Shown: positions 4,460-62,699 of the stretch, in pieces | Position numbering within the stretch: the first letter of the stretch is position 1 | How the letters are laid out: each line of letters begins with the position of its first letter | Assembly (NCBI GenBank): GCA_036172245.1 | Contig: JAYWIR010000025.1 | Coordinates: forward strand, 2,356,001-2,420,000 | Direction: 5' to 3' | Length of the DNA stretch: 64,000 nucleotides | Source: Raillietiella orientalis | Lineage: Eukaryota | Program-made: the position numbers and the translations under genes | Notes under the pieces: model-generated | The model's database searches: none | What the model was told of the DNA's origin: nothing | What the model saw: the letters and a program-made list of their open reading frames with translations, nothing else

Positions 4460-6500
4460 CGAAACTATCCGGGAACAGAGTTCCCGGACAAAGGACACAG
4501 AAAAACGAAGGGAGGGCTCCCCGACACGCAGGTCCTTAAAACCGAAAGTCCGGAACGGGAGGGAGGAGACCACAAATACATATTTAAAAAAATATAAATA
4601 AAAATATGGGGAGGGTAGGGACAGGGGTCTTTGGTTTTGGCCGTTCCTTCCTTTCAGAACCGGCGTTGGATGCTGTAGATCTCCTTCCTTACACCTTCTG
4701 GAAGATGAGGCCACCTTGAAGCCGACGTCATGTTCTCGTCGGCTATTCCGGTGGCCTCTCCACGAATCGCCTGCGACTCCAGCTGTAGGTGGGCCTTGTC
4801 GATGGTGCGAATGCAACAGACCGTTGCAACAACCGCACCCAAGGAAAGGCCGCCTGGCGTGAAGAAGCGGCGCATCAAATCCCTTGCGGTGTCCCCCTGG
4901 TGCAAGAGAGCTGAAGTCAGACTGTGCCACCGTCCTTGGAAGACACCGCAGTCGAAAAGCAGGTGCGGGAGCGTTTCTGCTTCTCCGCACCTTTTGCAGT
5001 TCGGGTAGGCAACTCCCCCGGAAACAATGTTCGAGAGCTGGTTGCAATGAAAGCCCCAATGCACCAGCAAGATTGCGTCCTGTTTCCACGAAAGGGGGAA
5101 CACAGAAGTGTAGTGTGAAATAGTGTCCACGCGCGAGGGAAGGACCACTAGATCTTCGGGGGGCACACTAAGCAGTTCGCTCCACCGGAAGAGTGCCTTC
5201 GGGATGTTGCGAGGCGGCGTCTGCCAGCTCGCTAGTCCTCCAGCCGCCCATGAGTCGGGTTGCTCCTGCGATCGTTCAGGCGACCTCCCACCTTCCCGGT
5301 AGGCAACTGTCATCACTTGCCCTTAGTGCAAACAGCGCTGCGGCAAGGGGCGTGGCGGCCAGACTGACTCACTCGCCCTGGTCTTGCATCAAATCCTCCA
5401 ATGGAAGGGGAAAGGTGCACGCAACGAAGTTCGATTAGCGGTACTTCCCGATGCACTTCCTGCCTCCAGGCGTTAAAGTTCGTTGGGTGGCAGGAGATCC
5501 AAGTGTGGGCTAGGAGCCGGCAAAGCGGTTTCAAGGGGAAACCGATGCTTCTCGTGGCGCACTCCGTATGCGGCAGGAGCGACAGAAGTCCTTCGCTGAC
5601 GGTGCAGCGCCGCAGTAGCAGGCGCGCGGGAGCACACCACGGAGTGAACTAGAAGTTGGCGCAAAGAGCCAACATCCGAAACTGCACCTGCAGTTCGATA
5701 CTCTCCAACGTCAGGATGCCTAAACCGGCATCCCGACGCGGAGCTGCCAAGTCTTGGAGGCACATCCTGGACCTCGCGGGTCCCCACAAAGCGTTCCTCA
5801 ACAGGCGTCTCGCCTGGAGCTTGGTCGAGTAGGGGGGCGAGCAAACAAAAAACAGGGGGCAGAAGAGGGGGAGACGAAGGTGTTCCAAACGGAGACCTGC
5901 TCCGGCAGGACCAGCCTGCCAGCTTGGAACGGGCCCAGAGCACTCTCAGCCTTCTGAAGGCAGTCCGACCATGCTTCCACTGGACTGATGCTCCCAGCGG
6001 GACGCCTGGGTGCTTCAAAGACCTGGCGGTCGGGATCCCGAGGCGGACTGCTCCCCCACGCCGCACCAACAGGGACGACTACACTCTTGCTCCGGTTTAC
6101 GCTCACGCCCGCTCCCCGGAGAATCAGCTCGAGGAAACCCTCGAGACTGGACACCGGGGTGGTCATGGGTAAAAGGAGAAGCAGGTCATCGGCATAGGCC
6201 TCCATGGACGGCGCACCTGGACAAGAGCTCGGCAGGTTGTCCAGTTACAGCCTGTACGCTCTCAACACCAACTCAAAGAAGATGCTGAAGAGCAGAGGGT
6301 TTAAACTGTCTCCCTGCCTCTGCCCCGCCGCACCGGCACGCCGTACACGTGGCAGCCGCTGAAACAGATGGAGGTGAGCGCGTGGCGCTAGCATGCGCGC
6401 AAACCCAGCTTTCGTTGGCTGCTGGTGGTGGGTGAACAATCCAACGCTTGGCGAGTTCTTCAGCAACGACAGGAAGAGTCGATATTGAAGGATTAAAAAG
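4460..6500 (-). mobile_element. Degenerate Tx1/L1-clade non-LTR retrotransposon: ORF2 (RT plus C-terminal zinc knuckle) and 3' UTR
   Basis: Minus-strand RT motifs RQGDSLNPLLF (~6310) and EAYADDLLLLL (~6190), GLGILTL (~5720), and C-terminal CKRCGEAETLPHLLFDC (~4950-5000). Many frameshifts. No endonuclease domain found. Confidence 0.85.
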
Positions 6501-8300
6501 CGATGCCACTGTGAACTCTTAACCGGCACAAGTCAGTTATCCTTGCGGTGACTTTCCTGACACCTCTTCGTAGTGTAGCTGGCTCTCCAGGTGTGATGGT
6601 GCTCGTTGCTGGAAACCCTTTTAAGTATCGCGTCGTCCTGAACTTCACAAATTCGGTGCAGAAAGTTATCTGTTCTCTCCTTACTGGCACTTTCTTTCAC
6701 GTCCTTGTCAAGTTGTGGTATTTCTCTTCTGCATTCTTGGATCTGCTGCATCTTCTCGCTTGCCACGCCGGTTCCTGACACCTTTTGTGAGCCTGACTGC
6801 TCTGCATGCTTCTTTGTCCTCTTGTTCCTGGTTTTCCTCTTTTGCCTCAGAGAATGGTCGCTGTCTCCGCAGCGGGGGGGTCTTCCTTCCCTCCGCTTCC
6901 AGCAACATCCTTTTCAGGGATGAGAGGAGTTCTCTGTAAGACTACCCACTACTTCCTTCAGTCTCGCTTGTTGTAGTCTACAGATGTAAAACTTCTTCGG
7001 TTAGGTGCATGAGTGCAGCAAGCGCCCCTGCCGGCCACACCGGTAACACCTCTTTCTGGATTTCGTTTTCTGCCCTGAGCGCAAGCACTGCAGAACGCAA
7101 GCTGGCACCTGTGCCCCAATGTGGATATTGGCCACCCCTGGTTATCGTGGCCTCGTCCTTTAGGATCCCTCTCCTGGAAAGTCCCTCTGCATGCTGTTCC
7201 GCAGTTCCACATGTTTGACTCCCATATGTTGTGAGAAGAATTGCCAGATGACTCTGTCTCGTGACGCAGTGGATCCCGGCCAGGAACACCGACGTCTTAA
7301 GGATTGCGCACAGTACTCGTCCAATGCGGCTAATTCCCTGCTACATGAGCGCTTCCATAAGCTGCCGAAGTCAAAGACGAGTCGGACACCATCATGGGAG
7401 AGTTTCTCTGTTGCAGATTCGTCTCATGAGTTTTCCGACAAGGTAAAGAGTGAGAGAGAGAGAAAAAACCATCGCCTGCAATTCTACAAATCATTTCATT
7501 CTGAATGATATGATTTGTCATTAAATCTTTAGTTCTAGTAAAATTAATATTTAATCAACATTTGTTTTTGTTTCTTCGGGATCAAAAGAGAACAAGGTGA
7601 CTTGCACTTTTCCAGAGAGTTCATCCAGTTCGATCAGATTGGGGATCATGGTTCCTTTTTCCATTCCAATTTTCATAAGGGTCTGTCCCCCGGAACGTCC
7701 ACCACAAAGGTACAGAGCGACTTCCCGTATGGCTGGAAGTGTCTCGTGATGGTGAGCTTTTTTGTCCTGACTTCGAGGTCGGCCAGACGTACAGTCGGCG
7801 CGGCCTTCTCAGATATTCCGTAGAGAATCCTCTCGTTGAAGAGCAGTCCGTTTTCGACGAGATCGTCGATCCCCGTTCGTGCTGTCTGTGTAAATGGAGG
7901 ATCCCACAGACGTCATGGCTGCCTTGGTGCGATCGGAATTCATCCTTTTCCGGTTGATGGCAAGGTATGTGTCGCTCACCGCACTGCTGGTTAAAAGACC
8001 CATGGGAAAAGTGACTGCGGTCACTTCCAGACCAAGTTCCCCGAGGGGCCGTCTTCGTTTTCGACCAGAGGTCCGGCGATCATGCCGTTTCCTGTGGTTT
8101 CTCCAGCGGGTCCGGTAAGCAAGGTCGCTGCCACCATTGTGTAGGACAACGCGAATGCCCTGGCATGGCAGTTACAGCCGCCTCGGTCTCCGCCGGTAGT
8201 TGCTGCCTCAACGACTCCACATTCCATTTCGGCTGTTGGAACTGCTTGCGCCACTTGTGGTCCACACGCCGCATTCAATACAAGACTAGAAGGCAATTGG
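6500..8300 (-). mobile_element. Degenerate ORF1 (gag-like, CCHC knuckle) remnants of the Tx1/L1-like element
   Basis: Minus-strand CYRCGRQGRLLHSC (degenerate CX2CX4HX4C) at ~7007-7048 and a basic low-complexity tail. Further GC-rich decayed coding sequence at 7600-8300. Confidence 0.6.
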
Positions 8301-10973
8301 CAGAGCAACAGAAAGTTTCCTATAGTCCGCGACTATTAACGCAAATCGAAGTCTTGGGGGATCTAACGGCAATCAAAGCAGTTGTAGTGTTTCTGTTCAG
8401 TTGATACATACAAATATCATTACCGTTCTTTCGTCTAAAATGTAAACATGTTGAAGTTTTGCGGCCATATACCCAAACGAAAGCTTGAAGTCATGCTGCA
8501 TGATAACTGAGCTAAACTTTTTTAAAAAACTGCTTTTGCTTCCGAGTTGGATTTTTCGCTGTTTCCCCCTCGCACATCTACCGCTATTCATTTCATGGAT
8601 TTTTTTCCTAATCCTTCCAGTAACTTCATGTGCTAAAAAAAAAAACGTGCAAGCACAACATCTTTCCATGGCATTTAAAAAACAGGAATCCATTTTTTTC
8701 CTTGAGAAAGCATCGAGCACCCCCAGCCAAAATCGCTGTTTCTACTGCCTAATTTTTCTCTTACGAATTTCCGTCTTTCAGATTCCTACATCCGTGTTAG
8801 CTGTAATCTAATTGCTATGAAGTATCATCAGGAAAATTCCTGCCACGTATATTTCTTACTTAGTTCTCTAAACAAGTTTTTCATTACATTTTAGCCTGTT
8901 CTCCGAGTTTCAATATATAATTTGTAGAATAGTAAATGTGGCACTATAGACTCTATGTTTTTCAATATGCCACACTCTTCAGTCCTAGCTTAAGTATAAT
9001 CACGGATAATTAATTTATTTTCATTTATTTTTTGTTGTTACTATCGAATGCTCTAGTTATTGGAAATAGTAGCAGTTGATATCAGTGAGTAATGGATGAA
9101 GCAGATTTCTATGTGGTATGACTTCTATGGAGTGTTTACATGAACAGCAAGAACAAATATGCTATCTCAACCACCTTAACTTTCAATGCATACTGCAGTC
9201 TATTGATCCCTGAGATAGAACACAATTTTTAAATGTATCAGGTCCAAAGATGTCAAGATTACTTGGTCAGAATACTGTTTTGCACAACAGAAACAAGTGC
9301 ACGGATTGTTATTGAACTTAGTATAAGTTTTTAGAAATATACCATTAATCAGCATCACATATGTGCTAAATGCAGAATTCGGCTACCAAATGGGGAAACT
9401 TCAACTGGGAGCAAAAAAATTTAGATATGGATACAAAGCACATTTTGAAAATTTTAAAACGTTTGGTTTCATAAATTAAATTAATGGACAGTGAAAGCAG
9501 TTATGTCTGCCAAATATGCTTCTTGACTCGAATCATACTGAAGAAACTGAATTCGAAAGAAACTAAAGCGACGATATGCCTTTATACAAAGGTGAAAACA
9601 GTTGGTAACTAATACAACTAACCACATTCATTAGAAATGTTATTTATTCTTTACTTCTGCTACAGTTTTCTTTGGTGCTTAATTGGATATATGAAAGAGA
9701 ATATGGTACACTTGTAAACAGTGTTAGTATTTCAACAAAATCATAGAGCTAGCATCTGGCAGTTTTGAAATACCTCAGGTACTAAATGGAAATTGAAACT
9801 AGGACTCGTTTTCTGCTAACTGTCACAGCATGAAAAACTCACCTTGCAATCAGACACAAATACAAGCACACATATCCAATCCACTTCAATGCATGTTCAA
9901 GAGAAATGCACACACATACACGTTTCGCTAATGCATGGTTTGACTTCGGGGTGTTCAAAGAACTTTGCTTGACTATGCAATGTTACTGAATGGTGCATAA
10001 AACTATAAAACACCACATGTGGATATTGCAACTCACATACAAGATAAGAGAAGCTGCTATTGGAGCACATAAAAAAAAATAAAGAGAAACACTCAATTAC
10101 TTGTTACATTCACTGTGTTCTGTCAGCATCCCTAAGTGTCCCACACTAAAGTAGCATTGTTGCATTTTTGAAAGTCATTTATTAGTCTTGAATATCTCTT
10201 GAAAGAGTTACTAGGTGCTATTTTGTTTTATAATAATGGTTGTTAATGGTAAACTACTAACATAATATCCAATTAATCCCCTGGTATAAAACTGTATTAA
10301 TACAAATTTGGTGGTAGAGAATTCATCATCTTAGAAAGACTCATTAACAAACAAACTATCACCAATGACTAAAAGGATTTTTTACTCCTTGCTATTCCTT
10401 CATAAATATTTTTATGAAGATTAAAATGGGAAAGTATTTATCAGTCGGATTATATGGGACAATGTTTGTATTACGGCTTCCGAATGATGCACGCATAAAT
10501 AGGAATCCCTAAAAAAAACTTTTAGATTCCTCTATTACGAAAGTGATTTCAAAGGCACAATGATGAAGCAGAATAAAAAACAAGCATCTAAGTTGTCATC
10601 GAAATCAATCTCCACTTAATAAAAGTATTATCATTAAAGTTATTCTGAAGTACATTCTGATTCCATCCATGTTAGAACTGTTGCTAACAAACACTATATG
10701 ACCTATCAACTCAGTTCATTTTGGGAACTGACAAAGAAATAATCACTGTGTAACTAACACTAGGCGTAATGTCACTGAAAAATAGTTTATTGTGTGATGA
10801 GGAATTCAGTAAAAACCCTAGTACAAGCGAAAAAGTCTAATTTTCATACCAAATCTCACTATGAAAAAGTATATTTCAATTATCCAAAAATATACTGATT
10901 ATTCTACTACATTCTACTACAGAAATCATGAATTACTATTTCCACAGATAAAGGTCAAAATAAAATCTCAGTT

Positions 10974-13900
10974 TCATATCAATGCTGGAAGGTAAAACTG
11001 CTGGGCAAATTCTTCTACTTTGTGTCTTAAGCATTCTACTTTTTCAGACAAATGACTCTCTTTCATCTTTGTACAAAAATCAACGAATTTGACTCCTGAT
11101 TCACTCTGAATTTCCTTTGCAAGTTGCAAGGCTGTTAATAACAAACTCAGTTAAAAAAAATTTTTAATCATTGAAAAAACCTAACCTTGTGAAATAAAAG
11201 AAGCGACTATTTTCATATCTTCTTCATTTAGTCCTCGTGTTGTCAAAGCAGGTGTTCCTAGGCGGATGCCACCTGGATTAAAGGCACTCTTGTCTCCTGG
11301 CACTGCAGTACTATTGTTCCAAGAATCCAGTATGAAATTTTTAGTCGCACCTGTATTTTTATTGCAGGCTATCGATATCTCTTCAAGAATTTTCTCAGCT
11401 TTGGCACCAGAAACACCATAAGGACGAAGATCAAGCCAAACTAAATGATTGTCTGTACCCCCTGTGACAAGTTTAAAACCCATATTCATTAATTCTTCAC
11501 TTAGCACCTTAGCATTAGAAACTATCTGAAAGAGACAAGAGTCAGAAAAATTATTTGAGAAAGTTTTTCTAAACAAAACCTGATGTCCATATTTTTTAAA
11601 GTCTGGTGTAGCAGCTTGTTTCAAAGCAACAGCAACAGCAGCAATAGCATTATTATGTGGCCCACCTTGCAGTCCCGGGAAAACAGCTTGATTAATGAGT
11701 GACTCAAGCTCATATGGTTTTCCTGTGCGATCACATATCCCTATAAATACACTTACTTCAAATTCGAAAATACATTCTCACTGTAATAAATTACAACAAA
11801 ATCTCATTTGACATGAATACCACTTGATAATGCAGATGAAAAAAAGCTTTTACTCTTAATTCCTTTCCGGATTTGTACAAATTTTGTGCAAAACTAGCAC
11901 ATTTTCTGATAACAAAAGCATTTATTCCCTTTAATTAATTTTTCATTAGCATTCATTTTATCTTGGGGCTTACTACAACAATGTTGCTGAGCTTGCCTGA
12001 AAAACAAATAGACAAACCTGAAGAGCACTTGTAAGGATTTAAGATGCCTATGAACTAGGGAAGTATTACTCGGAAATTTTTTTTAAGTGAAGTTTTCTCA
12101 CAAACCTTAGTTTCCTACAAAAAATTGCATAATAAAAGATTTTAAAAGTACTCAACTCAACACAGGGCAGACAACACAACTAAGTATGAATAAAGTAAAT
12201 ACAGACTTGGAGGTACAATGTCAATGTATAATAGTTATCAGTGACAGCAAACAAGAGAAATCAGAAAGAAAAGGATACGAAAAGGTATAAAAAAGCTCTT
12301 GTTTACAAACACATTTGCTTTCACAATTCAGAATAGTGTTCATATAAAAGTTGATTCCTAGCTCACTGTGTGAGCCACAAGTAAACAATAAGAAACACAA
12401 TTTTGAATATGGTTCTTACAAAGGTTCTAAAATCTTGGATGAGTCAATTCCATTTCATTCATAATTAACGTGATTTTCATTGAAAGACTATAGACATAAC
12501 TGTTCGTACAACCACACCTTTGCGAAAAAAAATCATTGCTGCTCTTGGTCCACGTAAACTTTTGTGTGTTGTTGTGGTGACAACATGTGCATGGTGAAAT
12601 GGAGATGGTGCTGCTCCAGCAGCTACTAATCCTGATACGTGTGCCATATCTGCCATCAAATAAGCTCCACAAGAATCTGCAATCTGACGGAAACGTGCAT
12701 AGTCCAAATTCCGTGGATAGCAGCTAACTCCTATTAGAATGTGAATGGATTTTCTTTTGCAATCTTACTAGCCTGCAATAATAACATTAGGAAGAAACAA
12801 CTTAGAATTCCGTGACAGCTGCTCATAATCAATCATTCCAGTCTGGATATCGATTTTATAAGGCATGGATTCAAAGAACACTGATGTGGCTGATACTTTC
12901 TTTTTGGCAGTCATAAATCCATGAGTCAAGTGTCCTCCATCAGGGAGGTCTAGCCCTACAAGCCGATAAAGTCAAAAATCAAAGAAAAATTACCCATTAT
13001 TCTTCCATGTGGTTTTGCCAAAGCAGTATAAACAGCAAAATTTGCAGGACTGCCTGAATAAGGTTGAACATTCACTCCCCAATTTTCAGGATCAAGAGAG
13101 AAAAGTTCTAATGCTCTATTCTGGCACAAAATTTCCATTTGATCAATGAACTGATTTCCGCCATAAAATCTTCATAAAAAGAACCATTTGCATTAGTCCA
13201 GTAAATTGCATAATACAAACATTCACAGAAAATAGTTTTTCAAAGTGTGATTGCCTAGCTATAAACAAACAAAATTGGTGTAACTGGTGTTTGAGCTCTT
13301 AAAACCAATTCAAATGCTACAACGTCAAAATGCATTATGTCTGTAACATCGCCTGTATCTTCTTATATCGTAATGACTTCTAATGCTCTCTATTATTTAA
13401 CTTTCCATTAAAGTATGTTAACTTCTCCCTGCCACGAAAGTAACAGAAATAATTTGAGATTGGTTATTAATTCACTAATCTTTTCAATTATTAAAATAAT
13501 CCATTATATTTATTTAATGGTTAAGGAAAATGCTATTCTGATAATTTCCTACTGACATGTTCCACTTTTCAATCTGGATGATTTCACATATCACAATTTA
13601 GAAACACATTTTGAATATTCAACTCTTTACTCCCTTTTATTAAACGAAATTTCGTCATTGCAGTGAAATTTTGTAGTCAATAATCTTTCTGCTGAGAATT
13701 TACGGGTTTGTGCCCGTATCCCCACTTCAACATGCACTTTGATCATTGTTTTTCAAAATTCTACTGAATCTTCCAAATTTTAGTGAACACTAGTAGCTGT
13801 CACCAAATCAAAGAATCCAATCTGTTCCACCTTCGAACGTGACAGATTGAGTTGTGTCAATATTTTCATGGTGAACATTGAAATTCACAATTGCTTTTAT

Positions 13901-15925: not shown

Positions 15926-17359
15926 TTTGTGAGATTTCCGGACAACAACAACAATCTATAAATACATTACATGCTAAGACAACTATAGAAAATCTTTTAA
16001 ATTATTAATTGTATGATTTGTTTTTACTTGTTATTACAGATACTAATGTGGTTTTCATTTGCGTTGTCTCCTAGTATGTTACGTAATTGTTAATAAAGAA
16101 AGAATTGAATAAGTATTATGAGTAGTATTTTTCCATTTATCCACATGCTTGGTTCAATGCTTCACACGGCTACTATTTTTTAAGCAAGCAGAGAATATTT
16201 GTACATGTCTAATTTTTCTCCTTTTTACACAGAAATCTCATATACGGGGCACAACTGTTCACATATACTAAAACTACGCCAAATCACGTAAACATTATAA
16301 TATAAAAATAAAATTCACGTAATGCCCAAACTGCAATTTTACGCTGATAGTAACAATAAAGGAATATCAATAGTATAATTCATATTTCCTTGGACTTTGC
16401 TTACGAGCAGGTTTTATCTATGCAGCATGTGAAATGGAGGAAGACAAAGTAAATTCACTGCAAACAAAACACTCCTTTGTAGACATAGTAATACAAAAAA
16501 GAAAAAAAGAGAGACTTTGTAACCAAGGGGCAACAGCTGTACCAAACGTCCCGCGCCTTTCCCGGATAGTCCCTTTCCAAAACGTAGGTCGCCACGGTAC
16601 GTCTCTTGTGCCAAACCTCTCATCTCTCAAGTTATAAGATTATGATAAAGAATTACATTTTTTGTTCAAAAATATAAATCCTTCATCATGAAGTGCATCG
16701 GAATGTACTGGTGGATATGGACTTATTGACTGATGTCACTCCAGAATGGTAATAATAAAGTATAATAAAGTTTAAAAGAAATAATAATAAAGCTTTTCCA
16801 AAAATAATCACTCAGTGTGTTCAGTAGCAGTGATCGAAACGAAGATAAAAAGTAAAACTCAAGTCAAAGTCGCAGCTTAATGGGGGATAAAAGCAGTGTT
16901 GAAGTAGACATGCAGTCTGTATACGTGAGTTCTGAAACTAGACTATGAACCTATCAAGAAAAAAGAAATAGAATTGGAGATTTAAGTACTCATCAATGTG
17001 CCGTGTAAATTCAGTGTTTTGAATCTTTGAATCTTTCTTAACTCCATAAGACAGCTCAAGTATTTCGTATCACTAAGACAATCTTGAAAATTATAAAAAT
17101 TTCTTCCAGAGCTCCTCGAGTCCCATGGCACTGTTTCCATGAGTACTTCATAGTTTTTTTCCTTAAAGAAAAATTCTTTTTTAAATCACACATTTATTGT
17201 TCTCGAATACACTTTCAATCAAATAATTACGCATATTCCATGTATGTCACCATCATATTCTGTGGCAAGATACATTTTTACGAACACTTTTATAAGTAAC
17301 ATTTCTGCTAGTTACATTTCCATATCAACATTATATTATTGTCTACTTCCAAGAGAAAG

Positions 17360-20300
17360 GGTCCTGTAATCCGGGATTCCGGAAGTGGCCAACATCAACG
17401 CTACTGCCAGGACGTCCTAATCAAGAACAGGTAACAGCCTGTGTTCTGATTAGGGTACGAGATGTTCGGGCACCGCGTGAGGGCTTGCCCAAGGGCACGG
17501 TGTTACCAGTGCGGCCAGCAGTGTCATTTTCTGAAGGCGTGTAACTAGCCGATGCTGTGTTACTTCTGTCGCTTGTCTGGACTTGCTAAAAAGGAGTGCC
17601 AGAGGTACGCGAACTGGAGGGAGGTGCAGGGGCTGTTGCCCATTCGGGAAGCGCCCGCGACAAAGGAGAAGCAGGCTCTTTTGAATGAGGAGACTGCCAC
17701 GATGGCAGCGCAGTTCACTGAGGTCAAGAGGAGGAAATGGAAGAGAAGAATGAGGCAGCAAGCCTAACAAGTCTCCGAAGAGCCAGCAAGAGTTGCCGTG
17801 TTGAGCGAGGAGTTGGAGCAAGTAGCGCAAACTGAAGAAGAGCTCGAAAAGTAGAGCAAAAAGTGCGATCAGTGGAGGAACTGCAAGACTCCCTTGAGCA
17901 CATCTGCGGCGTGGCGGTCTCAATCAACCAGCGCGTCCCCAATGGGCGCCACAGCTTCCCGCAGGGAATCGCTCTCGCTTGCTTCCTTGTGCACACTCTG
18001 TGAAGAGGCGACGACTCGGAGGGACCCCCCAACAGGAGGAGTCCGCTCCTTTGAACAACTGGAGAGGTGCCCGTAAGGGCTCCTGCTCCATCTTGAAACC
18101 GGAGGCGGTCCCCCGGTGACGGGGGTCCACTCTATGTTGCACACCGGAGGGGGAACTCCCCATTCCTTTATGCCTGGGAGGATCCGAAGGTCGACTCCCA
18201 TTGTTCCGGCCATCATCTGGAGGCCTCCGGCTTTATCCACCGCCGGGGCCACGCCCGAATGTCTCGGCCAACCAGTGCCGTTGCAGGAGAAACTCTGAAC
18301 CCAAACGACGCAGTGGCGTTAAGTTATCTGCCGAAGTATTCGAACCCGCGATGCATGGTGCCACGCGCGGAAGCCTTAACCACAAAGCCTCCGAGGCGTC
18401 CCCAATGAAGAACAACGGTTTGCTATGGAGGACAGACTGCTTGAAATCATAAAGAGTCAAGCGTGGAGTCCACGGGGTTGTCCTCCGCAACCTACAGTGA
18501 GCATCCAGACACTGATAGCAGCGACTACATCGAGTCCTAAAGCAACGTGGGTGACGAGAAAACCGGGAAGAGGAAGCTGATACAGTCTCCTAAGAAAAAG
18601 AAAAGCAAGAAGTGCGAGTACTCGAATCCCCGATGGCCACCTTCCTATCGACGGCCAGGAGCAGAAAGATCGCCTTCTGGATTGTTAACGGGTTGTGGAA
18701 CCAAGAGAAACGAGCCTGGCTTTTACGCAGAACATCGAACCTGATCACATAGTGTGCCTACAGGAAACCCACGATCTCGGTTACCAAGCCATCCTAGAGC
18801 TCGAGCGACTACTAGACGTCCAGCTGTTCCTGTTCGCGGGCCAGAAGAGAACCAAAGATGTGGCGATCCTCGTCAAGAACAACATCGCGCACACCGTCCT
18901 GGAGTCCTTTTCGTGGCCCGGCCGCATCGTCGGCGTTCGGATTCCCTGGTTCGGAAGCGCCCACCTGTTTCTGGTGAAAGTATACGGGCCGCATAGCGGC
19001 AAACAAGAAGCCATTGGGGCTCTGCTGTGAAACAAGGTCACGGCAAAGAACATTGTGATGGTCGTGGGAGAACGGAGCATGTAGGATCGCATCACCCAGT
19101 CCAAGGATGCTAGGGGAAGAACGGCCTATCAGCGGCTGTCCGAAGAGTACGGGCTGCTGTGGCCCATGGCGAGCCACAAGCCAATAGACTACGTCCTCCA
19201 CAGCCAGGACATCGCGAATTATGTGCAAGGCTTCCGGGACATCCCATTATTGCTCTCGGACCACCCCCTGACACAGTTCACGCCGCGAATGGAGAATCCT
19301 CGGAGGAAGGCAGGTGCAAGGGCTGCGCTCATCTGCATGCCCACCTGGTTCGAGACGCATCCCTTTCACCAGGAGCTCATCGAGGCGATTCTGCAGAACG
19401 CCACCATCCGCAGAGTTGCCGACAAGGACAGGTTGAAGCGGACGATTTATTTGTTCAGCAACCTGCAGTTCGGCGACAGGAAGATGAGAATGGAAGCTTA
19501 CCGGGAGCTCAACATCCACGACCATTCCTTCTCGAGGTACTGGCAGTAGTACGAGAGCCGGTAAGTTTTCAAGAACGTGAAAGGGGAAGTCGGTGTGCTG
19601 GAGAAAGACATCGCCACCAATGTCTTCTGCATCCAGTACGAAGATCAATTTTGGCACACGTCGGAAGGAATCGCGGAGGTTTTCCATCAACACTACGCCT
19701 CACACTTCTGACGTCAAGATCTGTGCCTGACTGAACAGGAGAACATCTTGCGCACCTGTATAAAACATTAAACATGGAGCAACAAGAAAGACTTCAAGAG
19801 GAAATCTCCGCCGAAGAAGTGAAGGGTGTTCGCGGGACTGCTCAAGCATGTGGAGGATGGTATACCGCCGATAGTGTTCCCATCTCGCACTATCAGCGGT
19901 ATCTGCACGCCTACCTGCGGTTGTTCCACGAGCTGGCTCTTCGCATCCAAGAAGAAGGAAGGCTCTCTCCATCGTTCCACGAGGGTAGGATGAGACTGCA
20001 GCCGAAGGAAGGAGACCTGATGAAGGTCACCTAATGGTGGTCCATCTCCATCCTGAACACGGATGCCAAGTGGTTGGTGAAGATTTGGACCAACTGCTTG
20101 AGCAAGACGATGCCATCAGTCGTTTCTCCGACACAGACGTGCGCGATGCCCGGACGCAGCATGTCGGCGAACGTGAAGTGTGCCCAGGCCACCATCGTTT
20201 ACTGCCGATACGTCGGCGAAAACCTGGTGCTGGATACAATCACCACACGCAACGTAAACCAAGTCTTACTTACAGTGAATTACCAAGAGCACGCAGAATG

Positions 20301-22680
20301 CCTTACGCACTTTTTTTTAATTGGTGCATCACCTTTTGCAACTTTACCGAAGACGACCTGAAAGATATCAAAGACTGGTGCAGATGCAACTGCTTCTTCG
20401 CATGCATAGGAAAAGAAACTTCAAGCACTGGCACGCCACACCTTCAGGGATATATGCAACTAAAGGAACCACGCACATTACCTGCCTTGAAGCGCACACC
20501 CTTCCAGAAGTGCCACCTAAAAAAAGCACGCGGTTCACCACGGAGCAACCTACGGTACTGCACAAAAGAAGATAAACAAGCATGGACATATGGAGCTATC
20601 CAAGAAATTAACGAACCAGCTACATACCAGGACCTGGTAAGCCAAAAATAATTAACAAGATCAAAAACCATGTCTCCACTAGATACTTCAACTCATAAAA
20701 GATGGCGCCGACGAACTCTTCATACTCAACAACCACACAACGTTTTATTCCAAAAACATCAATTTTGTAAAAGAATGCTTCCGCCTTACACGAAGCAGAG
20801 CACACCCCAACCGCCTCGCCAAACTTCAACTCAAGTCATGGCAAATGGACCTACTTAAAATCATACGCCTAAAACCTGAACTCAGAAAGATATACTGGTA
20901 CCATGACCCAGTAGGAGGCACAGGCAAAACAACCATGGCCAAATTCCTCTACTTGAAAAAGGGTGCCATATGCATGCACTCGTGTAAGAAGGCAGACGCG
21001 GTCCACATCTAATGTTCACTGGAGAAAACCTTTGACACCATGGACCACGGGATGCTCCTGAAGATCTTGCGGAAATTGGGCTTCCCAAGACACTTCATCC
21101 ACCTTGGGGACGCCTCCGCAGCACAAATGTTGTGGAAGGAAATTCTGGGGAAAATTAAAGAAGAGGCCATCAAGTACATTCGGGTCGACTTCAACATGAG
21201 GCGGAGGGCCACCTTGTGGAATAACGTTCTACTTCCCAAGGTGCTTTACGGAGCCACCTTCGGCAGAATCGACAAGAAGACGCAGGAGGAAATCGAAAAA
21301 CTGTAAAGGAAGATTTTTTGGAGAGAATTTAAGCCGAGGGTCAGGCTCGTACCATTGTGCCACCCTTGAGAGGAAGGTGGGACCGGAATGAAGCCGTTTG
21401 AACACCTTGTGGAAACCATAGACTGGCGGCAACTTTTGCATCTCACCGTGAAATGGGACCAGTGGCCTTTCTCAGAGCATAGAGCCTACTGGAAGCTGCT
21501 GAACAACTCGAAAGGTCTGATGTCTGCCCTGATGGGCTCCACTTGAGAGTGGGTGAAAGTCGATCTCACTTGGAAAAGGAAACAAGCACTAGTGAAGCAT
21601 CACCAATTCAAGATGGTGCCTAGGAGCAAAGAAATCTGGGATGAAGAACTGACCCTGGTGATACCCTACTTTGTCCCCGTTCCGAGGAAGACTTCCATGT
21701 AGATACACCAGAGGCAAAGATTGAGAATGTAGCATTGTGAGCAGTTCGTCAACAGAGGGAATCGCCACCAAGTGTGACAGCACGGACTACGTCGAGCCCG
21801 AAGCAACGTGGATGTTTCGCTTTAATAGAGAAATGAAAGGAAAGTTTCAGTTATAAAATCCGGGAGTTTTAAAAACATCTGTCACATCAAGAGGGCTTCT
21901 GATGACCAAGGCCAACATAAAAGAAGGAACATTGAAGAAATGTCAAGACGTCGCCGCCCTCGGAGCAGCTTCGAGCCGATATGGATGTTCACATGCAAAT
22001 ATGCAGATGGTTGGAAATGCACTTTGGAGGAGTGACCTTCCCCCGGACATGCAGGACGAGCTCTTATTGTTCTATCACAGAAGGATCCTGAGTGGTTCCT
22101 GACTTCAACACTGGACCGGGAAAATCCAAGACGGAGACTGCAAGGCGTGGAGCAGAAGAAACGCAGCTCTTCATATTCACTTGTCCCACGCTATGACTTG
22201 ATTAGCAGACGGTGAAGGCAATGACAGGCCTGCAGACAAGCAAATCGGAAATTATGGCGGGCTTGTTTCAGGGAAACGGAAACGCACCCCTGTGTAACCC
22301 GATGGTTCGAACGACGCTTGCCCTCTTCATCACAGCAATCGTGATAAGAAGGGCAAAGATTCCCACACCTCGAAGAGGAACAACTGCTTTAGAAATCTCG
22401 AAAGGACTCGTGCAGAAAAAGTTAGGAATGAGGAACTGTGGGAGGATCGCCGCCTGAACATAGCGTTACATGCTGAGGAAGATTGACGACTACGTTTAGG
22501 CAAAAAGAACAATCCTCTGAGCCCAAACTTCAAAAGATGCAGAAGTGTTAAAGTGAAAGTGACGTGAAGTGAGCAATGCAAAAACAGTGCAGTTGTTAGC
22601 AATGAAAACATTGAAAGGACTGAAAAGACTTGAAGTTTTTTGTTAAAAGTTAAAAGTATGCTTTAATAAATTCATCCCAC
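17360..22680 (+). mobile_element. Near full-length but decayed Tx1/L1-clade non-LTR retrotransposon (ORF1 knuckles, APE endonuclease, partial RT, C-terminal knuckle), interrupted by a viral Rep insertion
   Basis: ORF1 CYQCGQQCHFLKAC and CYFCRLSGLAKKEC (~17500-17600). APE motifs IVCLQETH, VAILVK, VYGP, IDYVL, SDH (18690-19265). RT N-terminal SISILNTDAK...QTCAMPGRSM (20040-20165), resuming as EKTFDTMDH...LGFP (21020-21090). C-terminal Cys/His remnant at ~22140 and AATAAA at ~22665. Confidence 0.88.
20298..21012 (+). CDS. rep: Endogenous CRESS-DNA virus Rep (copy A), spliced join(20298-20636, 20683-21012), 222 aa, open but truncated after Walker A
   Basis: HUH motif I WCITFCN, motif II TPHLQGY, motif III YCTK. 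Removing the 46-nt GTAAGC...CACTAG intron keeps the frame open through LKSWQ...RKIYWYHDPVGGTGKTTMAK (SF3 Walker A) to a TAA at the junction with the LINE. Confidence 0.9.
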
Positions 22681-28039: not shown

Positions 28040-29996
28040 ACAAATAAAGAGGATTCTTATGTAATAATGCATAGTAATATTATTGTTTTGTATGAGGGGC
28101 AAGTCAAGATTTCAGTTTAATTTGCATCACCTGGATGCATCTCCATAAGATAAAGCAAATGTTGAAAAGTCTACTCTATTTTCAATCATTTGGTATGCAA
28201 ACAGTACAGCTTTTGGGGGATTGGGGGGGGGGTGCATGTTACTGTTTCTGCTTATGAATTTAATAAGTATTTGTAAAGAGGGTCTCATTTATACAAAATT
28301 TAAAAGTTCATTACTAAATGTTCAGTCTCTATGACCAAATGATTTGGAAGCTTTCTTGCAGCAGTTGGGTGTTAAATGTTTATTAGCACAGTGAATTACA
28401 AAGTAAATTTTGCCATTGATTTCAGAAGGAAATGTAGGATGATCAAGAGTGAAGTTCCTATTGATGAATATTGAAAATCTCTTAACTGCACTTAGAAAGA
28501 AACTGAAAGGTAAAAACAAAACCAACTGTTTGGATGTATGCTACATGTTCCATTGTTAACCAGAAAGATTTGAAATATTTAATTGTCAAATGAGTAGGAA
28601 CTAATCATTCCTCTTGTGGATGTTACCTTGATTTTTGTTTTCTTTGAAAATGAGTTTGGTCTTTGAAAATGATGTTTTTACTAAGCTTAGATTAAGCTTA
28701 GCTAAGATTCTAGCTTATGAGGTAATTTGAAATTAAGGCAGTGGGCTTCTAGTCCCTTGCCTATGTAAACATTAAACTATTTTGCACCTTATGAAAATAG
28801 ATGAAGGGGTTATTTATGTTTTAGGGATTGTTTACTTTACTTTCTTGATTGTTTGCTAATTCAAATTCAAAAATTTGAATTTGAATAAGTAACAATTGCA
28901 GATCTAATTTGTGTTTTGCCTTTGGCACAGTACAGATTACATCTATCCTCTTTTTTTTTTTTTTCGTTTTAAACAGATCATTTCTTCAATCGGTCCATGG
29001 TACTTCCAGGGTGAGTTGTAATTTTTGCAAGAGGAGAGTTTTGTAGTAATCTTTCACAAATAAAAGTACCCACTCATTGTATTAGACAGCTTAGATGTTG
29101 CTTTTCAGAATAAAAAAAAATGCAGTATTTTATGTATTAAATACTTTTGCTATAGATATTAGTTTTCTTTTATGTATATAGTTTTATTTTTGATCAATCA
29201 AGTAGTTCTTGTTTTCCAGAGTGAAAGCAATAAAAGCACATGTTCTTTTAAATTGGATAATAAAAAAGGAAGCTTTAAGCATATTATTAGGATATTTCGC
29301 AAAAATATGCCAAATAATTTTGCATGTGTGTGACATAAAGGAAACCATCAAAAAATGTGCATGCAACCAAGTAATTAATACTGTCTGATGTCTGGCATTC
29401 TGAAGAACATATGTGCTCTCCATGAGATTTAATTTCTAGTTCTTATATATATGAGAAAACATTGACAAAAATAATCAGATTACACTTTGATACATTTGCA
29501 AGAAAGAGTATAATATTTAAGAAATATACCTTTCATTATGATTATACAGTTTTGAAGAAAAAAAATACTGACTCACAAACAGAAAAATCTACAATTTTTG
29601 GCATACAATGGAAAACTTGAACATTTAATTAGTTTGACCGAAGAAATGATATTCTGAAAACTAAGCTAATTATTCAGGTTGAACATAACATTTTTTATCC
29701 ATGTATGTAAAAAAGTAAACTGACATAAAATAATTTGACCACATGAAATTTTGAATCGTAATCAATGACTTCAGTTTTAGACTGCTTACATTAATGTAAT
29801 TTCATTAAATGCGAAAGCACTAAAAAAGGAAAAAAATAAGGGAAGGGTTACTTCACCTTTCCAGTGCAATTATTTTGTACAAAAAAATAACTTGCTTGCA
29901 AAATGCCTGACATATCAAAATGTACAACACAAACAAACTCCTGGAAATGAGCAAATAGGTCCGTCTAAATATGCTTTCTATCTTTCGAATTATACT

Positions 29997-30025
29997 GCAC
30001 GACACTTGTATGACAAGTGTCGTGC
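29997..30025 (+). promoter_or_regulatory. Putative degenerate rolling-circle origin stem-loop of the endogenous CRESS virus
   Basis: GCACGACACTT-gtatgac-AAGTGTCGTGC is a perfect 11-bp stem. TTGTATGAC matches the TAGTATTAC nonanucleotide at 7/9 positions and ends exactly at the 3' stem arm. Confidence 0.55.
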
Positions 30026-30059
30026 TTCCAGTAATTGCTTCCAGTTTTTTAGTTTATTA

Positions 30060-30800
30060 ATTCTTTTCTTTCCTTGTTTGACGTCCATGTCCTTTGACAT
30101 CTACAATCTTGGCCACCTCTAAAGTCATCCGTTCTCTGTCCTACCGGCCTCACGAAAAACCGTAGACTCTTTACTCCGAAACATCTTCTCCAGCTTCCAC
30201 GATTTTCGTCATAAAACTCCAACGCTTCCGTTATATTTTCATAAGTCTTTCCCTAATAAAAAGAGTACAACAATTCCGTCACCCAAGGGGCATCGGATGC
30301 AATCAAATTCCTAAATGATACCTTGAAACCTATGGTTGCGGTCCTGCCCCAACGACACCACTCCAGACCAACCCAGCCTCAGAGGTTCTATCTTGGATCT
30401 TACTCCCACGAGCTTCGCCTCATAAAAAAAAAACTTGCTCATCTCTTCCAGATTGCAATTCAAAACTGACGTCTTCAGCGGGTCTATAAAACTCTGTTCT
30501 ATGTGCATCCAACTGCACTGGTACGCTCCCCTTGTGGCAAAAACGTACACTGGCATACCTATACGCCTTTACTATCTGATCCCTTTCCACAGTCCTTACT
30601 AAACCGTATTTCCAATTAAACTTATTCCTAAAAACGCGATGACCGCTCCTTCGTCTTCTATCTACATACTTCCGGTACGACCTCACGCTGATCGTCTTTC
30701 GACGTTTTCCACCTCCGCCTGTCACCCTTTTCCGGGAGCGAACCGCCGTAGCCTCCTGCCCTCGGTAGACTTGACTACTACCTGCTGGCTACAGTCGATC
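30060..30800 (-). pseudogene. cap: Putative CRESS-DNA virus capsid protein gene (frameshifted)
   Basis: Arg/Lys-rich N-terminal arm (RSRKRVTGGGGKRRKTISVRSYRKYVDRRRRSGHRVFRNKF), as is typical of ssDNA virus capsids. Oriented divergently from rep, with minus-strand AATAAA at ~30053-30058. Confidence 0.65.
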
Positions 30801-31111
30801 CATTACCATTATCTTAAACCATTCTCGATCCCTCCCCCTCCCTCCCGTTTATCCTTTCACGTTCCACAGATTATCATTACAGTCCTTCACATCTGCTTCT
30901 GCGCAGTCTACACATTCTTTCACACTTTCTGCCCAGCAAAGCACTTATACGGTACGGACATCCGCTCCTTATCACTGCTGCTGATCACGCAGACTGTTTC
31001 ACCAAACAGAATTCCCTGGAAAGAAACGCGCGTGGCTCTGCCAGATGGGTAACACTCCCTATAGATACTCTTTCACTCACCGCGTTTTCCAGACCACTAC
31101 TTGCAATTATC

Positions 31112-32053
31112 ATGCCTTACGCTGCTTACACAAATTGGTGCTTTACTGTGAATACTCGGATTCTGAAACCATCAAAACCTGGGCTAGAGGACGTCCGTCC
31201 TTCATCATCGCCGCAAAAGAGGAAACAGAAGCTACCGGCACGCCTCACCTCCAAGGCTATATGCAATTGCATGAACCTTTCCCGTTGCTGCTACTGCAAA
31301 GACCGCCTTTTGCAAGAGCTCACCTCGGGCACGCTAAAGGCTCCGCAGAATCTAACTTGGCATCTTGCAGGAAGCAAGATCCACATCCCTGGACATTCGG
31401 ATCACTCGACACAAACCCTACAGAAGATAATCACGAGAAACACGTAAGCTCTCTTTTCACATTTCCTTTATTTTCCTTCAGATACTTCAACTCATACAAT
31501 CCGGAAAGTCGGGGCAGTTTGTATTTGAAAACCATACGCGCTTTTATGCGCGTAACGTACACTTTATCAAGGAGTCTTTTGGCCTCTACAGAGCTAAGCA
31601 CCCCTAACCCAATGCAAAACCTCCGTCTTCGAGAATAGCAGCTTGAGATTCTCGATCGTAGAGCAGCCAAACCTCCACATCCCAGAGAAATTTACTGGGT
31701 CAAAGAAGAACGGGGGAACGGGGGCAAAACCTTTGCCAAATAGCTTTTCATCAAAAGGAATGCCATCTACCTACAAAGCTGTAAAAAGGACGATGATGCA
31801 CATCCGTACAACGGGGAACGCATCATCATCGTTGACTTCACCAGAGATGCCGGGGAGATAGTTCAGTACGGTTTCATCGAGTCTCAAAAATGGTATCGTT
31901 TTTGACCCAAAGTACCAAGTCAGCATAAAATACTTCCACATTCCTCACGTCGTAGTAATGGCCAATTGGAAACCATCAGAAATTGTTTTAAAATGCTACT
32001 ATTTACTATTTCACCATGATAGAACTTGGGATATCCGCTTTCTTGGAAAATAA
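31112..32053 (+). pseudogene. rep: Endogenous CRESS-DNA virus Rep (copy B), full length, with intron 31444-31481 and several frameshifts and stops
   Basis: MPYAAYTNWCFTVN (motif I), TGTPHLQGYMQL (II), motif III with the Tyr lost (ASCRK), REIYWVKEERGNGGKT (Walker A), IIIVDFTR (Walker B), KNGIVFDPKY, PHVVVMAN (motif C), DRTW. Stop at 32051-32053 followed by AATAAA. The helicase half resembles nanovirus/alphasatellite-type Reps. Confidence 0.9.
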
Positions 32054-32151
32054 GAATAAAATTCGTCAAAGTTATTCAACTTGAAAGTATATCTACATAC
32101 TATTCAATTAAATACAAAATATCAAAGCAGTCTTGTGAACCAAATAAGCTT

Positions 32152-33119
32152 TTATTGTTCCAAATCTTGTTGAAATACACAAACAGATGGGCGTAGTTTA
32201 CATTCATCTAATTCAAGATCGTCTAAACTTTGAAACAGTGACTCATCTACTTCAATTTCACCACCCTCTAAAATGTCAATAAGATGCATATTCAAGGGTT
32301 TGGTTGCAATTACGAAAGCCAAATTAGACATACCAAAATCCTCCAAAAACTTAAGATCTGAATTATCTAACTGATGGTTTTGAAGAAAGAGTTGTTTTCC
32401 AGTCATTTTTTTAGCAGAGTTGCTATCTTTATGTGTTTTATTTTCTGCTAATCTTTCTAGATCAAACTGTAGTTTCCATTTATTGAAAGACTCAATAGTA
32501 ACTCTTGTGCCTTCAAAATGCTTCTACAAAATTACTAATGCAACCAACATTTATGTACAGGGAACCTTTTCTGCCTCATCCAATTCCTCACGGCGTTTAA
32601 CTTCCAGTAATTCAAGATCCAAGATCTTTTTTTCATACAAGTCATTTAAAAATTCTTGGGCAGCTGCTACCAAAGTATAGATCATGACTGTCCCTACATT
32701 ATCATGAGCCTAAGTATTAAAGCAAGCCAGCTTAATTAATGTTCTTAAATTAACAAACATTAATGGAAAAAAGATTTCAAACCTGGTTATGAAGGCAGCT
32801 CAAAATATGCTCGGCATCTTCATCATTAATGTTTTCCGATTTGAAAATTTCAATTCTGGGTGGCTTATCAGGGTATTCTTCATTGAATTCAAATGATAGC
32901 ACCAAAGAAAGCCTCTCTATTTGTGTGTTCTGGTTAAATTCTGAGCTAAACAGGGTTATTTTAAATTGATGCCAAGGATTTACATTACTAACTAAAATTT
33001 GAAATGGCTCTGTAGCAAAAGTATGACTGATATTCAAAAATATTACTTTCTAATTCTTGTGAATATATTGCTTGCAAAGCTTCAATTTCATTCAATTGTT
33101 CTTCTTTGTAATTAACCAT
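32152..33119 (-). CDS. RWDD1: RWD domain-containing protein 1; exons 33047-33119, 32783-32991, 32566-32709, 32334-32523, 32152-32267
   Basis: MVNYKEEQLNEIEALQAIY, EEYPDKPP, GTVMIYTLVAAAQEFL, FEGTRVTIESFNKWKLQFD, MTGKQLF, EVDESLFQSLDDLELDE. GT-AG introns. The extreme C-terminus and the exon-2 acceptor are uncertain. Confidence 0.92.
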
Positions 33120-49959: not shown

Positions 49960-50140
49960 CAAGTGAAAGCATTTCATGCCGACGGAGTTCCACTTCACCG
50001 CACGCTGCTGCGCCCGCGAATCCTCCGGCCCGTCCGCCGAAGGGCTCCCGCGGGCGCCCCGGCGGCGCCCACCAACCACTCGTCCACACTTCCTTCCGGT
50101 GGGCTCCTCCTTCCAGCTGCACACGCCAAGTGCACAACCT
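49960..50140 (-). mobile_element. GC-rich 3' fragment of an RLE-type non-LTR retrotransposon
   Basis: Minus-strand SVDEWLVGAAGA and QQRAVKWNS resemble the VGALG...IKWSR tail of Utopia/NeSL-like endonucleases. Weak match. Confidence 0.35.
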
Positions 50141-59942: not shown

Positions 59943-59949
59943 TTAATGA

Positions 59950-62690: not shown

Positions 62691-62699
62691 CATTTGTCT

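Follow-up and report, generated by a model that had tools for sequence, protein, structure and literature searches.

A circovirus-like Rep fragment inside a decayed LINE is probably captured viral DNA

Introduction

Why does a viral Rep frame without a single stop lie within the RT of a decayed LINE, and does its openness mean that the host has kept it? The DNA in question, 20233-21012 on the + strand, is a 780-nt circovirus-like (CRESS-DNA) Rep fragment in a eukaryotic chromosome; positions are those of the window, the whole 64-kb stretch of DNA that was analysed. Endogenous CRESS-DNA Rep elements are described as common among invertebrates (Rosario et al. 2018, PMC6186406). Rep-like endogenous sequences are reported inside host genes and transposons, where an intact ORF possibly reflects recent insertion (Liu et al. 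2011, PMC3198968). We propose, with a probability of about 0.72, that the fragment is a neutral endogenous viral element, in which circovirus-like rep DNA was captured by end joining into a resident LINE.

Results

The insert contains a leader, two exons and an intron.

20233..20297, + strand: viral leader, 64 nt upstream of the Rep ATG, read from the sequence
20298..20636, + strand: Rep exon 1, HUH endonuclease domain, 113 codons, with HLQ and YCTK
20637..20682, + strand: Rep intron, 46 nt, GT-AG (GTAAGC...CTAG), with an in-frame stop inside
20683..21012, + strand: Rep exon 2, linker and SF3 helicase start with Walker A (GGTGKT), 109 codons (20683-21009), then TAA

An earlier note on this DNA had described an uninterrupted Rep within these limits, and its coordinates and content are borne out, with exons, intron, motifs and stop all located. 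Spliced, the frame runs for 222 codons with no stop and carries HLQ, YCTK and Walker A; the unspliced product would be 117 aa. The left junction of the leader is uncertain by a few bases.

Exon 1 matches Pfam Viral_Rep PF02407 over residues 8-91 (E=4.9e-13; 49.6 bits, against a cut-off of 26 bits), and shares 31-45% identity with 12 Rep proteins of 270-442 aa and 35-43% with five viral contigs of about 2.0-2.15 kb. It holds the three motifs of an HUH-superfamily nuclease domain (motif I, motif II HUH/HUQ and motif III YxxK), here as a variant CITFCN, HLQ and YCTK, respectively. The latter two align with their counterparts in nine relatives, while motif I has C in place of the first N, a residue present in 8/9 of them. 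The best protein relative reaches 45% identity, one match (40%) falls in the 64-205 aa range, and the exact 117-aa ORF is absent from a 15-billion-protein collection. Exon 2 has no Pfam match. Three of the nine aligned relatives (P0003, P0004 and P0008) align with it through the linker and Walker A, as far as their GK.xD..H stretch, which lies at about residue 185-190 of the 270-aa P0003 as estimated from alignment coordinates.

The ORF stops before the Walker B position of these three proteins, and the gene is a fragment. It ends about 25 residues short of that position, so that roughly the last third of Rep is absent; of the parts of a complete SF3 helicase (Walker A, Walker B, motif C and arginine finger) it has Walker A only. 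The TAA occupies 21010-21012, at the junction itself, leaving a Rep with an intact 5′ end and a cut 3′ end. The base composition of the insert (A 36%, G 17%) is unlike that of both the LINE and the background. Neither the origin stem-loop with its nonanucleotide nor the capsid gene of a whole circovirus-like genome was found: 20150-20310 holds no inverted repeat or stem-loop, the ORFs of the five related viral contigs gave no capsid match, and the nonanucleotide, searched only as NANTATTAC, is absent from 19500-21500 and 29000-32500. The same NANTATTAC occurs in 3/5 of the related contigs.

Removal of the 46-nt intron restores the Rep frame, and exon 2 then continues the linker region of the relatives. 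The window holds a second Rep element (copy 2; the insert is copy 1) with an intron of its own.

31112..31980, + strand: copy 2, a degraded Rep-like element in the same orientation as copy 1 and 10 kb downstream, located by tblastn
31444-31481, + strand: copy 2 intron, 38 nt, at the same site as the copy 1 intron

The copy 2 intron is also GT-AG and lies between conserved exon ends, yet it cannot be aligned with the 46-nt intron. Since a divergent copy is interrupted by an intron there too, and removal of either one restores the frame, the copy 1 intron is genuine. Host introns, by our reading, are very short (37, 73 and 42 nt), and the two Rep introns fit these lengths. Two of the five retrieved viral contigs (L004 and L005) match both exons in a single reading frame and thus need no intron.

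The LINE lies on both sides of the insert.

17350..20232, + strand: LINE 5′ part, degenerate non-LTR retrotransposon, from three-frame reading; left boundary approximate
near 17480-17600, + strand: CCHC knuckles in an ORF1-like region, from three-frame reading of the LINE
18689-19300, + strand: APE-like piece of the LINE, with a weak Exo_endo_phos match below the cut-off
19735-20232, + strand: N-terminal RT part of the LINE, ending ...YCRYVGENLVL
21013..22650, + strand: LINE 3′ part, where RT motif A resumes (..SLEKTFDTMDH...); right boundary approximate

A HMMER search of 1.84 billion proteins with the 5′ flank (19735-20232, its single stop read as X) finds 1055 relatives at E<=0.001, the best at E=6e-23 and 38% identity. 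Five of these relatives were scanned, and RVT_1 is present in 5/5, zf-RVT in 4/5 and Exo_endo_phos in 3/5. The window's own flank pieces have no Pfam match to RVT_1, and the assignment to RT rests on the wide HMMER search; the Pfam Exo_endo_phos match covers 18689-19030 (E=0.00096, below the cut-off). A PDB sequence search gave 0 matches for the 5′ piece and only chance-level ones for the 3′ piece, among them an L1 RT chain (E=0.9). In ORF2-like proteins of 1100-1300 aa, the blastx counterpart of the 5′ region is about residues 430-590; on this mapping and the 1055 relatives, the RT domain is collinear with APE-RT proteins. GC rises from about 0.3 to 0.47-0.56 in a step beginning near 17001.

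The 3′ part skips to the post-RT region from about 21100, with about 140 residues missing, including the RT core. In homologues with RVT_1 at 515-764, the blastx match of 21076-21492 is to residues 761-900, and no Y/FxDD motif occurs in any frame of 21013-21800. The LINE thus has no intact ORF2 with a catalytic RT core. It had been called full of stops and frameshifts, and both are present, but the wording was somewhat overstated: besides the deletion from near 21100, there are nine in-frame stops in 736 codons (four within the 3′ part) and at least one frameshift (near 19708-19741).

Both flanks belong to one non-LTR RT and read in the same frame (position mod 3 = 1), which the 780-nt insert, in LINE orientation, preserves. 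In all 29 homologues that match the search pattern, out of 150 retrieved, Q..GR and KAFD are spaced by exactly 39 residues. In the window, 33 of these residues lie before the insert, and residue 39 is where the LINE picks up after it; therefore 2-5 LINE codons are missing, in good agreement with the earlier claim that almost no LINE sequence was lost. Capture of DNA at a single break gives just this outcome, a clean insertion whose two junctions fall in adjacent codons. Each junction carries a 5-bp CTGGA (20230-20234 and 21019-21023), which may reflect microhomology or have arisen by chance; unlike a simple target-site duplication, its two copies are not one LINE position. There is no A-run or poly(A) in 21000-21030. 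Some blastx alignments (17-47) carry LINE homology on into 20233-20360. We rejected this as chance extension, because the frame soon meets a stop, the spacing to motif A does not fit and, judged by eye, its nucleotides resemble the true 3′ flank hardly more than random sequence would.

Could the LINE itself have made the chimera? An RT might have switched template onto a Rep transcript, or a master LINE might have carried the fragment into many LINE-Rep copies. An insert in LINE orientation that preserves the LINE frame, beginning 64 nt before the ATG at what is a plausible transcript 5′ end, would suit such a history, and carnivore circoviral elements with non-LTR flanks are described as having reached 10-20 copies (10.1101/207399). 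Two template switches returning within 2-5 codons of the point of departure are hard to credit, however, and the carrier has no RT core. The 64-kb window holds no further copy of the LINE or of the LINE-Rep chimera, and an RT domain is present in 0/12 of the longer Rep relatives. We consider this origin unlikely.

The unbroken Rep frame raises the matter of age. At the lesion density of the LINE, 3.1-3.7 lesions would be expected in Rep and none is observed (P(none) = 0.026-0.047). The insert must postdate its LINE copy, and its intactness therefore needs no selection. The Rep fragment is probably younger than the LINE copy, which would explain why the LINE has stops and Rep has none. The earlier suggestion of a much younger integration fits these counts and is enough to explain them. 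A probability of 0.03-0.05 of no lesion under LINE-like decay is also expected from weak purifying selection, and the contrast between decayed LINE and intact Rep is weak evidence. Copy 1 keeps 21/28 conserved HUH-domain columns (0.75), against 0.72 in copy 2 and 0.75-0.87 in eight independent Reps. Copy 1 thus sits at the low end of exogenous Reps, and retention of these columns does not separate drift from constraint.

As a domesticated gene, the truncated Rep would be kept and expressed by the host as an HUH domain with partial helicase, and might act as a dominant-negative product or through antiviral small RNAs. Its 222 uninterrupted codons with HLQ, YCTK and Walker A, its intact splice signals and host-like intron length would all suit this role, as would the low probability of escaping lesions were it as old as the LINE; the co-oriented Rep nearby hints that viral DNA accumulates in this region. 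Expressed circovirus-like endogenous rep is reported from a tapeworm (PMC8384839) and from other eukaryotes (PMC3198968). Against this, the insert needs only to be younger than the LINE, and the stop at the junction makes the C terminus an accident of insertion. The absence of the ORF from the protein collection, with no relative above 45% identity, gives no sign of orthologues or paralogues. Domestication is thus distinctly unlikely. It is slightly less likely again that the host retains a spliceable truncated Rep specifically against a virus lineage that repeatedly enters this genome. Such a Rep would serve either as a dominant-negative HUH or oligomerisation fragment or by supplying the sense arm in a small-RNA region that has gathered, within 11 kb and in one orientation, two or more Rep fragments of different lineages.

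Copy 2 continues as far as the part of Rep that holds Walker B and motif C, with several frame changes and in-frame stops. Against copy 1, it shows 46.7% identity over 92 aa (tblastn, E=7.9e-24), 36-50% in exon 2 and only loose similarity in the leader. Over 139 codons, pS is 0.83 and pN 0.33, in codon blocks chosen by amino-acid similarity, which lowers pN. Copy 2 is from a different viral lineage than copy 1, and two Rep elements of different lineages, in the same orientation within 11 kb, are not expected from rare random integration. No hairpin lies near either copy. An arginine-rich ORF near copy 2 (30423-30788, - strand) was at first a promising capsid candidate; we set it aside, as it has no relative in the viral contigs, no usable Atlas match and no match to the ORFs of the five related contigs. 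The window also contains an SHMT exon, and its only Rfam match is a 28S rRNA fragment.

The two copies might instead be paralogues of an old host Rep family, acquired early and duplicated, with an intron gained or kept and one copy later moved into the LINE. The common intron position and host-like intron lengths are compatible with this, and a saturated pS of 0.83 beside a pN of 0.33 would place most of the divergence under purifying selection. Two replicating viruses would give the same pattern, though, and the choice of codon blocks lowers pN. With copy 1 truncated inside a transposon, copy 2 riddled with frame changes and no related host proteins found in the protein searches, such a family is very improbable. 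Least credible is an assembly artefact, in which the LINE was misjoined to a contaminant read or to viral DNA from an episome: the deviant composition of the insert would fit, but a false join gives one breakpoint, not a 780-nt partial gene between adjacent same-frame RT codons, a truncated gene without origin or cap is unlike an episome, and decayed copy 2 shows that this virus lineage enters the genome.

Discussion

Capture of viral DNA accommodates these observations as follows. A non-LTR copy would already have been resident in the chromosome when a break occurred within it, and end joining, non-homologous or microhomology-mediated, would most likely have sealed 3′-truncated rep DNA into the gap. 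The fragment would have brought its short leader and native intron, at the cost of a few LINE codons, and would afterwards most likely have been a neutral fossil. The marks of a processed retrocopy (intron removed, poly(A), 5′ truncation) are missing, and of a target-site duplication there is at most the 5-bp CTGGA repeat. The retained intron, the lack of poly(A) and truncation at the 3′ rather than the 5′ end point to end joining of viral DNA and away from retrocopying. The same features, with the intron now known to be genuine, strengthen the earlier view that Rep, with its intron kept, more likely came from DNA or pre-mRNA than from spliced mRNA. Rep-mediated integration was considered and rejected, with no nonanucleotide or stem-loop near the junctions. 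With no origin, no capsid gene and the last third of Rep (from Walker B on) gone, the fragment cannot replicate or act as a helicase.

As it stands, the Rep fragment is a real but ordinary viral fossil of a kind already known. The fossil record of circovirus-like viruses consists mainly of endogenous Rep fragments, and copy 1 adds to it a divergent lineage (at most 45% identity). The locus also illustrates, in clean form, the capture of viral DNA into a transposon. The same-site introns of 38-46 nt, fitting host introns of about 37-73 nt, suggest that such a host supported replication of the virus lineage, which was then no mere passenger. If fixed and expressed, copy 1 would be a candidate for Rep-based antiviral co-option.

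Truncated geminivirus Rep, expressed in plants as an engineered dominant-negative resistance transgene, interferes with virus. By analogy, an N-terminal Rep fragment without a working helicase, such as copy 1, could interfere with a related virus; the geminivirus protein is an engineered, expressed transgene, whereas copy 1 is known here from sequence alone. Other counterparts are the CVe/CEV elements of animal, fungal, plant and protist genomes, described likewise as chromosomal Rep fragments, often truncated and sometimes with an open frame (PMC3198968; 10.1101/207399; PMC6186406). Copy 1 differs from them in its identity of at most 45% to anything retrieved and in the intron it has in common with a second local copy. 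CVe-Carnivora-4 is described as circoviral elements flanked by non-LTR sequence, in 10-20 copies, apparently through retrotransposon-mediated duplication (Dennis et al. 2018, 10.1101/207399). It resembles our locus in embedding a circovirus Rep in a non-LTR retroelement, but there the link is drawn from copy-number expansion, while here one copy is visible in the 64-kb window and the carrier LINE has no RT core. In the tapeworm Taenia hydatigena, endogenised Circoviridae are reported with several integrations per genome, some of them transcribed (PMC8384839). These too are circovirus/cyclovirus-like rep in an invertebrate genome; as described in that report, they have rep and cap opposed and comprise a whole viral genome, whereas copy 1 is a rep fragment only. 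Exogenous CRESS-DNA viruses, cycloviruses among them, are described with a Rep intron between nuclease and helicase (PMC6186406), as in the locus studied here. Compared with those spliced exogenous Reps, the introns of copies 1 and 2, at 46 and 38 nt, are very short and host-like.

The Rep insert and its LINE carrier

The window is N-free across its 64,000 bases and has a GC content of 40.8%. A 780-base insert at 20233–21012 (+) differs in composition from its surroundings (A 36%, G 17% and GC 0.44; the GC of the flanks is 0.50–0.55 and that of the AT-rich background 0.31) and is organized as follows.

Features of the Rep insert (copy 1)
5′ of the ATG at 20298, +: leader, 64 nt, from sequence reading
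20298 (ATG)–20636, +: Rep exon 1, 113 codons, with a Viral_Rep match and the HLQ and YCTK motifs
20637–20682, +: intron GTAAGC...CTAG, 46 nt, with an in-frame stop inside; its removal restores the frame
20683–21009, +: Rep exon 2, 109 codons, with GGTGKT, in the frame restored by intron removal
21010–21012, +: TAA stop, at the end of the insert

Exon 1 matches Pfam Viral_Rep (PF02407) over residues 8–91 (E=4.9e-13, 49.6 bits, cut-off 26). Exon 2 has no match in the Pfam scan; it can be aligned to the linker and Walker A region in three of nine aligned Rep relatives (P0003, P0004 and P0008), and the insert ends about 25 residues short of their Walker B position. From alignment coordinates, we estimate that the truncation falls at about residue 185–190 of the 270-aa P0003, and the helicase of copy 1 reads as incomplete.

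A word-based search of proteins of 199–2000 aa returned 12 relatives of the Rep at E<=0.001 from 71 candidates (270–442 aa, 31–45% identity). All 12 contain PF02407, seven contain PF00910 as well, and none contains a reverse transcriptase domain. Five IMG/VR contigs of 2033–2153 nt also code for relatives at 35–43% identity, three of them with the motif NANTATTAC, and the 64–205 aa protein range contains a single match at 40% identity. The exact 117-aa unspliced Rep ORF is absent from a collection of 15 billion proteins. We therefore assign the insert to a divergent circovirus-like (CRESS-DNA) Rep gene.

Searched against 1.84 billion representatives, the translated 5′ flank (19735–20232, P0013, with its one TAA read as X) yields 1055 relatives at E<=0.001, of which 14 pass E<=1e-10. 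The top relative reaches E=6e-23 with 38% identity, and many relatives are 1100–1300 aa long and are matched at about residues 430–600. RVT_1 is found in all five relatives scanned, zf-RVT in four and Exo_endo_phos in three. The LINE pieces of the window themselves have no Pfam RVT_1 match; their sole Pfam match is a sub-threshold Exo_endo_phos at 18689–19030, and an ORF1-like region with CCHC knuckles lies near 17480–17600. The domains of the relatives and the CCHC knuckles identify the flanks, by homology, as a non-LTR retrotransposon on the + strand, which extends from roughly 17.35 to 22.65 kb as judged from the GC step and reading.

By blastx, 19747–20208 aligns to residues 432–584 of the LINE homologue P0059, whose RVT_1 domain spans 515–764, and directly 3′ of the insert the LINE is collinear with the next homologue residues. 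In a second homologue, P0101, the alignment of the 5′ flank stops near residue 213 and that of the 3′ flank begins near 216. In 29/29 homologues fitting our pattern, out of 150 retrieved, Q..GR and KAFD are always spaced by exactly 39 residues. Thirty-three of these residues precede the junction, and the LINE restarts at residue 39 (E), followed by KTFD; at most five LINE positions are unaccounted for, and the three codons ahead of the E may also belong to the LINE. This ruler and the blastx collinearity bear out the earlier claim that almost no LINE sequence was lost, leaving 2–5 codons missing. Both flanks are in one frame. The observation of a Rep inside a LINE reverse transcriptase is confirmed.

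Decay of the LINE and of the Rep

Over the 736 codons of its homology path, the LINE contains nine in-frame stops, and the stretch 19708–19741 holds at least one frameshift. From about 21100, it skips from homologue residue about 620 to about 765, so that ~140 residues including the RT core are gone, and no Y/FxDD motif occurs in any frame of 21013–21800. This deletion starts just ~90 bases 3′ of the insert. The spliced Rep, as the earlier note stated, is stop-free through its 222 codons (here resolved as 113 + 109, with HLQ, YCTK and GGTGKT present). We scaled the LINE lesions to 222 Rep codons and corrected for stop-proneness (5.0% of single-base changes yield a stop in the Rep vs 4.4% in the LINE). 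At the LINE rate of decay, the Rep is expected to carry 3.1 stops, or 3.7 lesions counting two indel events, and the probability of none is 0.047 or 0.026, respectively. The contrast is nevertheless weak, because the insert is necessarily younger than the LINE copy that carries it, and because some LINE lesions may predate the insertion of the LINE itself. The earlier interpretation is partly supported: a younger, DNA-level integration fits, and co-option of a truncated Rep, a possible alternative, is not needed to explain an intact Rep in an insert younger than its LINE copy. Among HUH columns conserved in at least 8/9 relatives, copy 1 keeps 21/28, eight independent Reps keep 0.75–0.87 and the decayed copy 2 keeps 18/25, a measure that cannot tell drift from divergence between lineages.

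A second Rep element with a shared intron

A tblastn search of the window with the two exons located a second element (copy 2) at about 31112–31980 (+), about 10 kb downstream of copy 1 and in the same orientation. The exon 1 match covers 92 aa at 46.7% identity (E=7.9e-24); for exon 2 the identity is 36–50%. Copy 2 is interrupted by several frame changes and in-frame stops, and reaches further into the helicase than copy 1, into the region of Walker B and motif C.

Intron of copy 2 and host genes
31444–31481, +: copy 2 intron GTAAGC...TTCAG, 38 nt, at the same site as the copy 1 intron
32152–33119, −: host gene with RWD and DFRP_C domains, neighbouring copy 2
11184–11777, −: serine hydroxymethyltransferase exon, host gene (E=6e-54)
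44665–45342, −: prenyltransferase alpha-subunit repeat protein, host gene

The intron interiors of the two copies cannot be aligned, whereas the exon ends align on both sides. Neither intron length is a multiple of three, and removal restores the frame in each copy. The shared site and restored frames show that the Rep intron is genuine. We read introns of about 37, 73 and 42 nt in the RWD/DFRP_C gene from GT–AG pairs and frame continuity, which points to very short introns in the host; the viral introns (46 and 38 nt) would fit such a host.

Across 139 ungapped codons, the copies share 51.8% protein and 56% DNA identity. Synonymous differences are saturated (pS=0.83) against pN=0.33, in codon blocks picked by amino-acid similarity. 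With that selection of blocks in mind, these values suggest that purifying selection acted during most of the divergence, a pattern to be expected of two replicating viruses rather than of a duplicated fossil, and they place copy 2 in a viral lineage other than that of copy 1.

Copy 2 lies within a roughly 2-kb island (30000–32000) of 46% GC amid DNA of 28–32% GC; a complete circovirus-like genome would be about this long. An arginine-rich ORF of 122 aa at 30423–30788 (−), divergent from rep, occupies the expected place of the capsid gene; no capsid homology was found for it.

How the insert arrived

The simplest account is end-joining capture of viral DNA in a resident LINE copy. A break would have occurred in the LINE after it was already in place, and a viral DNA fragment would have been captured there through end joining, with a small loss of target sequence. 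A 5-bp direct repeat, CTGGA, is present at both junctions (20230–20234 and 21019–21023); no single LINE position accounts for it, and either microhomology or chance could explain it.

A template-switch chimera is unlikely, as it needs two switches that land back within 2–5 codons of the point of departure. No nonanucleotide or hairpin is found at or near the junctions, and Rep-catalysed joining at an origin is therefore unsupported. A false assembly join would be expected to leave a single breakpoint, whereas here two fall in adjacent codons of the same RT motif. Against a LINE-made retrocopy of spliced mRNA stand the retained intron, a 3′ junction with no A-run, a 5′ end that is intact while the 3′ end is cut, and the absence of a real target-site duplication.

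Other features of the window

Non-repeat host DNA is AT-rich, at about 30% GC. A GC-rich island at 4200–8800 contains LINE-like RT matches (5448–6402, −), a CCHC-like match (6953–7057, −) and a 156-nt eukaryotic 28S rRNA fragment at 6386–6541 (−; Rfam LSU_rRNA_eukarya, 82.7 bits, model positions 2825–2984). This island may represent an rDNA-targeting retroelement that has picked up a piece of its target. Further GC-rich islands at 50000–64000 reach 63% GC, with long open frames on both strands and in several frames. The ORFs scanned there gave no Pfam match at E<=0.001, and the islands are probably unclassified repeats.

Comparison with known endogenous elements

Liu et al. (PMC3198968) report Rep-like sequences that lie in host genes or in transposons, where an open frame may point to a recent integration. 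Carnivore circoviral elements that have non-LTR retrotransposon sequence on their flanks and have been amplified to 10–20 copies are described by Dennis et al. (bioRxiv 10.1101/207399). For Taenia hydatigena, the genome paper (PMC8384839) records rep and cap among the endogenised Circoviridae sequences, some of which are transcribed. Rosario et al. 2018 (PMC6186406) mark those exogenous CRESS genomes in which an intron splits the Rep ORF, and describe endogenous elements in mites and helminths. The locus lists in the supplements of these papers might hold relatives of the insert. Two features of the locus are mildly unusual: the very short, host-like intron shared by two divergent copies, and the occurrence within 11 kb of two Rep elements that have the same orientation but belong to different lineages.
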